Part shown: positions 22,000 to 22,911 of the stretch, piece after piece
Numbering within the stretch: position 1 is the stretch's first letter
How the letters are laid out: every line of letters starts with the position of its first letter
DNA from: Candidatus Kaiserbacteria bacterium
GTDB taxonomy: Bacteria > Patescibacteriota > Minisyncoccia > Phycocordibacterales > JABMNX01
Length of the DNA stretch: 64,000 nucleotides
Direction: 5' to 3'
Assembly: GCA_016186705.1 (NCBI GenBank)
Contig: JACPLB010000004.1
Location: 12,381-76,380, forward strand
Notes under the pieces: model-generated
What the model saw: only the letters and a program-made list of their open reading frames with translations
Database searches by the model: none
What the model was told of the DNA's origin: nothing
Program-made: the position numbers and the translations under genes

Positions 22000-22911
22000 T
22001 TATGCGTCTTTTTTTACCAATTGGTTAATCGCGTTTGTAATCACCGGAAGAATGTCGTCATAGAAATTAAGGTCAAGAATACTTGAGAGTTTGAACCACT
22101 TCGCGTCGTCAAGCCCGCCCTTACCCTCCGGAAGCGCGATATCTTTAAACGGAGCCTTGGCAAGGTAGTAGATAACCTGTTTGCGTATTTTCCCTTTCTC
22201 CGGCTGAGTCGCCACATACTCGTTCATGCCGAGTTTTTCACCTACATCGACATCAAGACCGAGTTCTTCCTTAATTCCGCGCCTGATACCCTTTTTGATT
22301 TCTTCATTCTCTTGTATATGCCCTTTCGAGAGCGTCCAGTGACCGAACACGTCGTGCACCAACGCAAGGTACGTTTCATTTTTGTCCACAGAATACACGA
22401 CTGCACCGCCGAGACGTTCAATCGGCATATCTTCATACGCGATTTCCTTTCGCCTTTTTTTCTTGGAGACCTCGTTCTTTCCCGGTTCGCCAAGCTCTTT
22501 ATACACCGCACCTAATACACCGTTTACAAATCGACCGCTGTTATCGCCGCCGAATGTTTTTGCGAGCTCAATAGCTTCGTTGATAGCGACTTTTGCGGGG
22601 ACTTCCTCGCGGTCTGCAAACAGGAGTTCGGCGAGTCCAAGGCGGAGAATATTCCTATCTACGACTGATATCTTTTCAATCGGCCATTCCGGCGCTGCTT
22701 TTTCGATAATATCGTCAATGTCGGGCTGTTTCGCGATGACAGTGTTGAGAAGCTGTCTCATAAATGAAACGTCGCTCACACCAGGAGCGAATTCCTTAAC
22801 GTTTCGCGACAGCACTTCTTCAAGGTCGGTCTTCTTGTTTTTTACACTGTCAAAATCGTACTCAAAGAGAGTTTGAAGAACAATACTTCTCGACAAGTGC
22901 CTGTTTGCCAT
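22000..22911 (-). CDS. nusB: NusB-domain / NUDIX-hydrolase fusion protein
   Basis: Residues 1-140 match NusB ([60 protein letters not shown]). A Lys-rich linker follows. Residues ~160-303 are a NUDIX domain with box [23 protein letters not shown]. Confidence 0.8.
   Translation of the reverse strand: [303 protein letters not shown]

Follow-up and report, generated by a model that had tools for sequence, protein, structure and literature searches.

A NusB-Nudix fusion protein of the Paceibacteria with a degenerate Nudix box and a conserved putative nucleotide pocket

Bacteria universally rely on NusB as a core factor in the synthesis of rRNA, and this protein normally has a single domain. In a stretch of 64,000 nucleotides from a Candidatus Kaiserbacteria genome (contig JACPLB010000004.1; hereafter the window, in which coordinates count from the first letter), the nusB gene is covalently extended by a Nudix domain. 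The fusion gene is located on the minus strand at 22000..22911 and encodes an orthodox NusB, a charged flexible linker and a Nudix-fold domain of the diadenosine tetraphosphate (Ap4A) hydrolase type. In most members of the family the catalytic Nudix box has lost a glutamate that is essential in related enzymes, whereas the residues that line the nucleotide pocket in solved Ap4A hydrolases are retained. From this pattern in the sequences we tentatively propose that the NusB-tethered Nudix domain serves to bind a nucleotide or the 5' end of an RNA, and that hydrolysis is weak or dispensable.

The open reading frame (ORF) runs without interruption from the ATG at 22909-22911 to the TAA stop at 22000-22002, and its 303 codons contain two Pfam domains that both score above the cutoff. 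Residues 1-140 (22492..22911, minus strand) form the NusB domain with its seven helices. They match PF01029 over residues 7-138 (E 2.7e-34, 118.8 bits against a cutoff of 23.1), pass the NCBIfam equivalog model for nusB, TIGR01951 (122.7 bits, cutoff 88.35), and superpose in Foldseek on the NusB structures 1tzt, 3imq and 3r2d with template modeling (TM) scores of 0.84-0.88 and root-mean-square deviations (rmsd) of 1.6-1.9 Å. Conservation was assessed in a family set of 179 fusion proteins, which includes 120 relatives with an identity of 66% or more (the close relatives) and 58 distant representatives. In this set R8, E95, F128 and G131 never vary, and at least 97% of the members share R4, D85, R90, E112 and E115. 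The hallmarks of the classical NusB proteins of E. coli, T. maritima and Aquifex (1tzt, 3d3b, 3r2d), namely the N-terminal R-x3-R and the -x3-S-x-FVNGVL motif, are kept in nearly 100% of the fusion family. No second NusB was found in the 64-kb window. Residues 1-140 are thus an orthodox NusB, but unlike the classical protein, which stands alone with a length of about 140 amino acids (aa), this one is followed by a linker and a Nudix domain of about 160 aa and is encoded between rpmF and rnc.

The linker of the window protein, with a length of 25-30 aa, covers residues ~141-165 (22417..22491, minus strand). Its length varies between 11 and 47 aa across the family, with a median of 29, and it is rich in charged residues (24% K+R, 21% D+E). 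An AlphaFold2 model of the fusion protein, built on 56 diverse family members, has a mean predicted local distance difference test (pLDDT) score of 92.9, with values above 90 over residues 1-140. The model places the NusB helices at residues 2-140 and an alpha/beta/alpha Nudix domain at residues 164-302; residues 147-153 are disordered (pLDDT below 50) and the predicted TM (pTM) score is 0.57. In the model, the NusB and Nudix halves fold independently of each other and are joined by a flexible tether. The Nudix domain itself was assigned to residues 166-303 (22003..22416, minus strand) from its match to PF00293 (residues 182-283, E 4.4e-11, 43.4 bits against a cutoff of 21.1), from Foldseek and from a comparison of the family profile with solved structures.

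The fusion is a property of a large group of bacteria. The 120 best homologs (66-100% identity; NCBI, JGI, ENA and Logan assemblies) all contain both Pfam domains, with lengths of about 300 aa, and the named ones among them are Kaiserbacteria, Paceibacterota or Parcubacteria, in which the database label is merely NusB. Full-length relatives are present in at least 365 GTDB species representatives (one genome per species), and the fusion-encoding genomes include the closed chromosomes OZ244961.1 and CP060229.1. Named carriers span the Kaiser-, Nomura-, Taylor-, Zambryskii-, Wolfe-, Lloyd-, Campbell- and Adlerbacteria. A HMMER search of 1.84 billion cluster representatives yielded 152 matches at E<=1e-30, about 60 of which are full-length two-domain proteins with identities down to about 30%, each of them representing a cluster at 50% identity.

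These data bear directly on the possibility that two adjacent genes were joined by a sequencing or assembly error near 22430. Because the identical continuous frame is found in hundreds of assemblies from different projects, closed chromosomes included, we consider an artefact to be excluded for practical purposes, and we found no point in its favor. Likewise, no separated pair of nusB and nudix genes was found, and the one apparent Nudix-only representative examined (P0231) was rejected as a split gene, being a fragment at the end of a contig. The fusion is a real and ancient trait of the class Paceibacteria/Parcubacteria of the candidate phyla radiation (CPR). It is visible in the databases as a pair of Pfam domains, yet it is annotated as plain NusB, and a search of the literature on NusB-Nudix fusions and on NusB in the Patescibacteria met no description of it. 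In these respects the original prediction was borne out: it had described a covalent NusB-Nudix fusion from motifs that are all present in the intact 303-aa ORF, with NusB hallmarks in residues 1-140 and a Nudix domain in the C-terminal half, and it had pointed to the phylogenetic distribution and to the junction as the places to look. Neither of the two outcomes that it had named as refuting was observed: the hundreds of independent assemblies show no frameshift, and the C-terminal half does score as Nudix.

Two further claims of that prediction, that the Nudix domain is of the RppH type and that its box is canonical, had to be abandoned. When the Nudix half was compared with the PDB using Foldseek, the first match was the Ap4A hydrolase of Aquifex (3i7u; TM 0.89, rmsd 2.2 Å), followed by the mycobacterial MutT1/Rv2985, which are diadenosine polyphosphate (ApnA) hydrolases, the Nudix domain of NrtR (3gz8) and CT771 of Chlamydia. 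Further matches were the Ap4A hydrolases of C. elegans and human and Ndx1 of Thermus; of the 551 matches at E<=0.001, the 50 listed are mostly Nudix structures. A profile of the Nudix half of the family gave a similar ranking against the PDB, with 3i7u at 2e-21, CT771 at 8e-16, NUDT2 and Ndx1 at 8e-13, the C. elegans enzyme 1kt9 at 1.6e-11, MutT1 at 7e-10 and Dcp2 at 3e-9. The Nudix domains of NrtR and AraR are also found among the fold and profile matches. RppH was absent from the 45 PDB matches of the profile at E<=0.001 and from the Foldseek top 50, and the fusion protein reached only 20 bits with the NCBIfam model for RppH (NF001936/PRK00714), for which the cutoff is 118. Since ApnA hydrolases top both the fold and the profile searches, the Nudix half is of the NUDT2 type rather than the RppH type, and we conclude that it descends from the Ap4A/ApnA-hydrolase subfamily represented by NUDT2, the Aquifex enzyme and CT771. 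With RppH (NudH), a Nudix enzyme that acts on RNA 5' ends and nucleoside-tetraphosphate (Np4) caps, the likeness is one of functional analogy only: RppH is not the closest family by model, profile or fold. NUDT2 is reported to be the closest human relative of RppH (PMC8616924).

The domain thus belongs to the Nudix superfamily by score and by fold, and its box is incomplete. If the complete box is taken as G-x5-E-x7-R-E-U-x-E-E-x-G-U, the window protein reads G197-x5-E203-x7-R211-G212-I-x-E215-E216-x-G218-L over residues 197-219 (22255..22323, minus strand), so that a glycine (codon 22276-22278, GGA on the minus strand) stands where the catalytic glutamate of the R-E pair is expected. This substitution, which RppH does not share, is not a peculiarity of one genome. 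Only 51 of the 179 family members (28%) have Glu at position 212, the share being 31% among the relatives of at least 66% identity and 24% among the distant ones. In the 120 close relatives, the position is occupied by E in 37, V in 34, S in 13, and G, A and K in 10 each. The surrounding residues are better preserved in this group: conservation reaches 96-100% at G197, E203, R211 and E216, and 92% of the proteins have E or D at position 215. Only 9 of the 58 distant representatives keep R-E-x-x-(E/D)-E. Across the whole set, the full catalytic set is present in 42 of 179 proteins (23%), E212 alone is missing in 94, the class to which the window protein belongs, and 34 (19%) lack two or more of the three metal-binding glutamates. 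The canonical pattern GEREEEG is read in 40 of the 179 sequences, and P0223 and P0247 are examples of orthologs with a dead box.

The loss has occurred, or been reversed, many times. On a neighbor-joining tree built without the box columns, from which the parsimony counts are approximate, position 212 underwent at least 29 switches between E and non-E and 72 multi-state changes, as compared to 3-10 changes each for D187, K196, Y232, K244, Y248, W272 and Y284. A stand-alone Nudix family of the same genome (17966-18409) served as a control: in 116 relatives with 41-68% identity, the G, the R, the Glu of the R-E pair and the E-E pair are conserved at 100%, although this family is more diverged. 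We looked for an acidic residue that co-varies with the loss of E212 and could compensate for it, but no candidate was convincing; position 205 showed the largest shift, +0.23. RppH requires the corresponding glutamate, E53. In an alignment to the solved structure made with HMMER, position 212 corresponds to E58 of human NUDT2. NUDT2 trims 5'-triphosphorylated RNA (PPP-RNA) to the 5'-monophosphorylated form (P-RNA), and its E58A mutant is inactive (PMC8616924); chains of NUDT2 E58A have been crystallized with bound ligand (PDB 4ijx). The window protein thus naturally bears the type of substitution that has been used experimentally to abolish hydrolysis by NUDT2, and its own hydrolysis is predicted to be strongly impaired. 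Nothing relevant beyond NUDT2 was found in the literature on mutants of the E63A type in Ap4A hydrolases.

Contrary to the catalytic site, the nucleotide pocket is conserved. We mapped its residues to solved Ap4A hydrolases by sequence alignment with HMMER rather than by superposing coordinates, and in these alignments K196 corresponds to K42 of NUDT2, Y232 to Y82, K244 to K89 and Y284 to F128. In NUDT2, the P1 phosphate is contacted by K42, Y82 and K89, and the conserved loop-5 Tyr and a second Tyr/Phe, F128, stack on either side of the adenine (PMC4734340). The four residues are 91-97% conserved in the fusion family, and the pocket residues are still 85-94% conserved in the class with a dead box; Y248 is preserved along with these four, as are D187, W192 and W272. 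The family thereby resembles the ApnA hydrolases (aq_158 3i7u, CT771, NUDT2, 1ktg, Ndx1, MutT1/Rv2985) in its W-T-x-P/S-K-G motif, the Lys/Tyr/Lys of the P1 phosphate site and the adenine-stacking Tyr/Phe, but differs from these enzymes, all of which keep R-E-x-x-E-E, in that most members are without the Glu of the R-E pair and one fifth are without further metal ligands. Furthermore, none of the solved ApnA hydrolases is fused to NusB.

The mean pairwise identity of the Nudix half is 0.49, compared to 0.60 for the NusB half, and the two are correlated (r = 0.86), which shows that the Nudix half is under purifying selection and co-evolves with NusB. Judging from the alignments, selection appears to keep a pocket for an adenosine 5'-phosphate moiety and not the catalytic metal site. 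A degenerate box next to a conserved pocket is the sequence signature of a non-catalytic Nudix reader domain, and both are found here. The decay of the metal-site glutamates in combination with the fixed ligand pocket makes a reader module the most likely role of the Nudix half among those that we considered.

Two family relatives, P0256 and P0257, may represent a more advanced stage of the same process. They consist of NusB followed by about 200 aa without any Pfam match. The similarity of these tails to the Nudix domain is weak but in register (BLAST E 0.019; hhalign E 5e-4, probability 33%), and where the fusion has its Nudix box they read KTNLNNLFGLD (box K-T-N-L-N-N). P0257 fills the same slot, between rpmF and rnc, and this positional orthology supports the interpretation of the weak match as a decayed Nudix domain. 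The tails thus look like fully dead, retained Nudix remnants. The NusB ortholog of ENA ERZ21831038 contig_3 (L083:5001-6017) and P0256 come from a lineage of high AT content (31.8% GC), and in their C-terminal region of about 200 aa, which is still encoded between rpmF and rnc and appears to be a fully decayed Nudix domain, there is an E/K-rich low-complexity insert.

As a separate observation, the most divergent NusB-Nudix fusion (L087:5001-5900; GCA_054047225.1, JBPLFY010000016.1; 25.6% GC) has two in-frame TGA codons, exactly at the family-invariant W192 and W272. In ten genes of this locus, in-frame TGA occurs 10 times and TGG 2 times, and no gene ends in TGA. This indicates a recoding of UGA to Trp in a Patescibacteria-like genome.

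The genomic context of the fusion is highly stable. In the window, the genes on the minus strand are arranged in the order rnhB (23771-24376), an unassigned ORF, rpmF for ribosomal protein L32 (22962..23264; PF01783), the fusion gene, rnc for RNase III (21302..21994; PF14622, PF00636 and dsrm), smc (18997..21240; PF02463 SMC_N), an alpha/beta hydrolase and a trio of Nudix, DUF6624 and Nudix genes; rnc starts 5 nt 3' of the fusion stop. The order dnaE(-)/rnhB, rpmF, nusB-nudix, rnc and smc recurs in 80 related loci wherever the contig is long enough. In these, rnc is directly downstream of the fusion in 80 of 80 cases, smc follows rnc in nearly all loci of sufficient length, and rpmF is upstream in 76, the remaining four being contig ends (L015, L027, L039) or having too short an upstream sequence. 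The adjacency to rnc is kept even in the most divergent fusion (L087) and in the degenerate form (L083). No terminator-like sites were found between rpmF, the fusion gene and rnc, and scans for promoters and terminators around the operon gave results at chance level.

Stand-alone NusB proteins of 144-157 aa, which are more than 50% identical to the NusB half of the fusion, were identified in two other loci. One of them (L082, 513-947) is 58% identical to the window NusB domain and is found in the order rpmF, nusB, rnc, and the other (L085, 1707-2180) in the order rpmF, nusB, HU. Since the synteny of rpmF and nusB is also found with a stand-alone NusB, the rpmF-nusB(-rnc) backbone predates the Nudix module or has a wider distribution, and the two lineages can serve as outgroups when the acquisition or loss of the Nudix domain is to be dated.

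How might such a module work? The fusion would be the NusB of this organism, that is, the BoxA-RNA- and NusE-binding subunit of the complex for rRNA transcription and maturation (the Nus complex), and a flexible linker of about 29 residues permanently tethers it to a Nudix domain derived from an ApnA hydrolase. The pocket of the Nudix domain may capture a purine nucleotide 5'-polyphosphate. A candidate ligand is the 5' end that the nascent rRNA leader presents, as 5'-(p)pp or with an Np4 cap, a short way upstream of BoxA, and an alternative is a free signal of the ApnA or ATP type. Capture of the ligand could then be coupled to the loading of NusB/NusE onto BoxA, to looping of the leader and to the step carried out by RNase III, which is encoded directly downstream. 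Hydrolysis would be slow or dispensable, and the quarter or so of the orthologs that have a full box may have retained turnover of the ligand. Our analysis establishes the architecture of the protein, its orthology, synteny, fold and subfamily, and the way in which its residues are conserved or decay; what the ligand is, that it is bound but not hydrolyzed, and how the synthesis of rRNA might be affected are what we infer from these patterns.

In its most specific form, the hypothesis holds that the Nudix domain is a pseudoenzyme reader that clamps the 5'-triphosphate or Np4A-capped first nucleotide of the rRNA leader near NusB/NusE-BoxA, such that both the loading of the complex and the cut by RNase III depend on the state of the 5' end; in all of these details combined, we consider it rather unlikely. 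Np4 caps do exist in bacteria, where they are removed by the Nudix enzyme RppH (PMC7044304, PMC8833179). In E. coli, the 30S maturation defects of nus mutants are suppressed when rnc is mutated, and the Nus factors together with SuhB loop BoxA to the RNA polymerase (RNAP), thereby promoting correct maturation that depends on RNase III (PMC4807359). By analogy, the pairing of the genes for NusB and RNase III in the Paceibacteria matches the link between the Nus complex and RNase III in rRNA maturation.

The architecture joins known kinds in a new manner: NusB itself, fusions with a NusB domain, as in RsmB, and Nudix pseudoenzymes, as exemplified by CFIm25. RsmB/Sun provides a precedent for a NusB-fold RNA-binding domain that covalently delivers a second domain to rRNA, and RsmB models match the NusB half weakly, with 1sqf among the matches. 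However, the partner domain in RsmB is a 5-methylcytosine (m5C) methyltransferase of 16S rRNA with an intact active site and its N-domain is a paralog and not the NusB of the cell, unlike the fusion protein, which passes the NusB equivalog test in a window that holds no other NusB. The best working analog for a reader role is CFIm25/NUDT21, a Nudix fold inside an RNA-processing machine, the mammalian pre-mRNA cleavage factor Im. CFIm25 is without the second and the fourth Glu of the box and binds Ap4A (2.4 uM) and ATP without hydrolyzing them (PMC2425470). The likeness that we see is at the level of the fold; CFIm25 is eukaryotic, dimeric, not a member of the NUDT2 subfamily and uses a different stacking residue.

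Several observations weigh against a reader without catalysis. The packing between the two domains is undefined in the model, and a perfect box is still found in the 42 proteins with the full catalytic set. The retention of E203, R211, E215 and E216 in the clade of the window protein is, on the evidence of the alignments, unexpected for a purely non-catalytic domain and suggests that metal binding, and perhaps residual catalysis or catalysis with an alternative base, persists. That the loss of the Glu from the R-E pair is disabling is itself inferred by analogy with NUDT2 E58A and RppH E53A. Furthermore, an Rfam scan of the window revealed one tRNA and no rRNA, hence no leader or BoxA there.

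We also considered the possibility that the Nudix domain is an active pyrophosphohydrolase, which NusB delivers to the rRNA leader for conversion of 5'-ppp/pp ends or Np4 and nicotinamide adenine dinucleotide (NAD) caps to 5'-p, or for local destruction of ApnA. The activities of the closest subfamily, which hydrolyzes ApnA and in the case of NUDT2 also trims PPP-RNA (PMC8616924), the removal of bacterial Np4 caps by a Nudix enzyme (PMC7044304, PMC8833179), the adjacent RNase III gene, which fits RNA processing, the 92-100% conservation of E203, R211, E/D215 and E216 in the close relatives and the perfect box in 42 of 179 proteins all speak for it. Nevertheless, Gly212 of the window protein sits where Ala inactivates NUDT2, the Glu is present in only 28% of the members and has flipped at least 29 times, the 19% without two or more metal ligands keep both the domain and the pocket, and another family in these genomes, one of true Nudix enzymes, keeps its box at 100%, with no compensating acidic residue found in the fusion. 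We therefore think it unlikely, although not remote, that the active enzyme is the answer. The suggestion in the original prediction of a role for RNA 5' ends or nucleotides at the antitermination complex remains plausible, for binding more than for catalysis, but an obligatory role for hydrolysis is contradicted by the decay of the catalytic Glu throughout the family in the presence of a fixed pocket.

Yet another explanation is that the fusion has no mechanistic meaning, in that a housekeeping Ap4A hydrolase gene located between nusB and rnc was joined to its neighbor when a stop codon disappeared in the ancestor of the Paceibacteria, works or once worked without regard to NusB, and is in decay in many lineages today. 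This would fit with the long, disordered and variable linker and the decaying catalytic residues, and the order rpmF, nusB, rnc with a stand-alone NusB in L082 shows that the Nudix domain was inserted or lost at the operon junction. However, the streamlined genomes of the CPR should delete a useless domain, yet it has been kept in at least 365 species, its pocket is 85-94% conserved even when the box is dead, its rate of change tracks that of NusB (r = 0.86), and no separated gene pair was seen, the Nudix-only representative examined being a contig-end fragment, so that we regard a fusion without coupling as quite improbable. A similarly low probability is assigned to a ligand-free scaffold, in which the Nudix fold bridges NusB/E-BoxA to RNAP or NusA in the antitermination complex of the CPR, much like SuhB. 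SuhB sets a precedent: it is an enzyme-fold protein that joins NusB/E/A/G on the rRNA operons of E. coli, in the antitermination complex of rRNA transcription (rrnTAC), and mediates looping between BoxA and RNAP (PMC4807359, PMC6614797, PMC6614801), in connection with maturation by RNase III (PMC4807359). The decay of the catalytic site and the presence of the NrtR and AraR Nudix domains among the matches count in favor of such a role. SuhB differs in having the fold of an inositol monophosphatase and in being a separate polypeptide that is recruited via contacts with NusA and RNAP, and in the fusion family the best-conserved residues line the nucleotide pocket of the Ap4A hydrolases, with no obvious new surface; a conserved nucleotide pocket suggests a nucleotide-like ligand and counts against a scaffold.

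The remainder of the window provides some additional observations. The genes for rpoD, dnaG, rpoC, rpoB and an RNase R/RNB-family exoribonuclease are located at 2836-12826 (minus strand) and 14792-16825 (plus strand), and nusA, nusG and the genes for S10, SuhB, ApaH and YqeK were not seen among the window ORFs scanned, up to 52131. The two additional stand-alone Nudix genes that the original prediction had mentioned are indeed present, at 16939..17385 and 17966..18409 on the minus strand, with a DUF6624 gene between them (17393-17962, minus strand), which places the trio about 3.6-5 kb downstream of the fusion. The family of the Nudix protein encoded at 17966-18409 shows a weak resemblance to decapping enzymes of the Nudt16-like kind (PF22327; 27.1 bits, cutoff 27). 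The SMC homolog next to rnc has only 747 aa, with the SMC_N profile covering residues 2-732; typical SMC proteins have about 1200 aa, and this suggests a much shortened coiled coil. The beta subunit of phenylalanyl-tRNA synthetase (35883-38216, minus strand) has B3_4, B5, core and FDX-ACB domains with an NlpC/P60-like domain (PF00877, E 2e-13) inserted at residues 363-471, and an N-terminal tRNA-binding domain was not detected in it. ORFs without a Pfam match, all on the minus strand, are found at 23384-23698 (104 aa, between rnhB and rpmF), 28930-30348 (472 aa), 30421-31688 (two overlapping ORFs of about 218 aa that adjoin a sortase gene), 39004-39882 (292 aa) and 45198-46589 (463 aa).

Our findings present what appears to be a clean natural case of an enzyme on its way to becoming a binding module within a machine for RNA processing, similar to what is seen with CFIm25 of eukaryotes or SuhB of E. 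coli. Should the Nudix half be merely a decaying housekeeping enzyme, the annotation would still have to be corrected, since the protein is neither a plain NusB nor a canonical Nudix hydrolase. Were the ligand to be the 5' end of an RNA or an Np4 cap, bacterial non-canonical capping and Ap4A signaling would be linked directly to the transcription and maturation of rRNA. A reader of the 5' end would amount to a co-transcriptional cap-binding function in bacteria, in a lineage with a minimal regulatory repertoire, and transcripts initiated with Ap4A would tie the loading of the rRNA complex to the aminoacylation and stress status of the cell. If this is true, the fusion would provide a testable handle on gene regulation in these uncultivated, genome-reduced symbionts.

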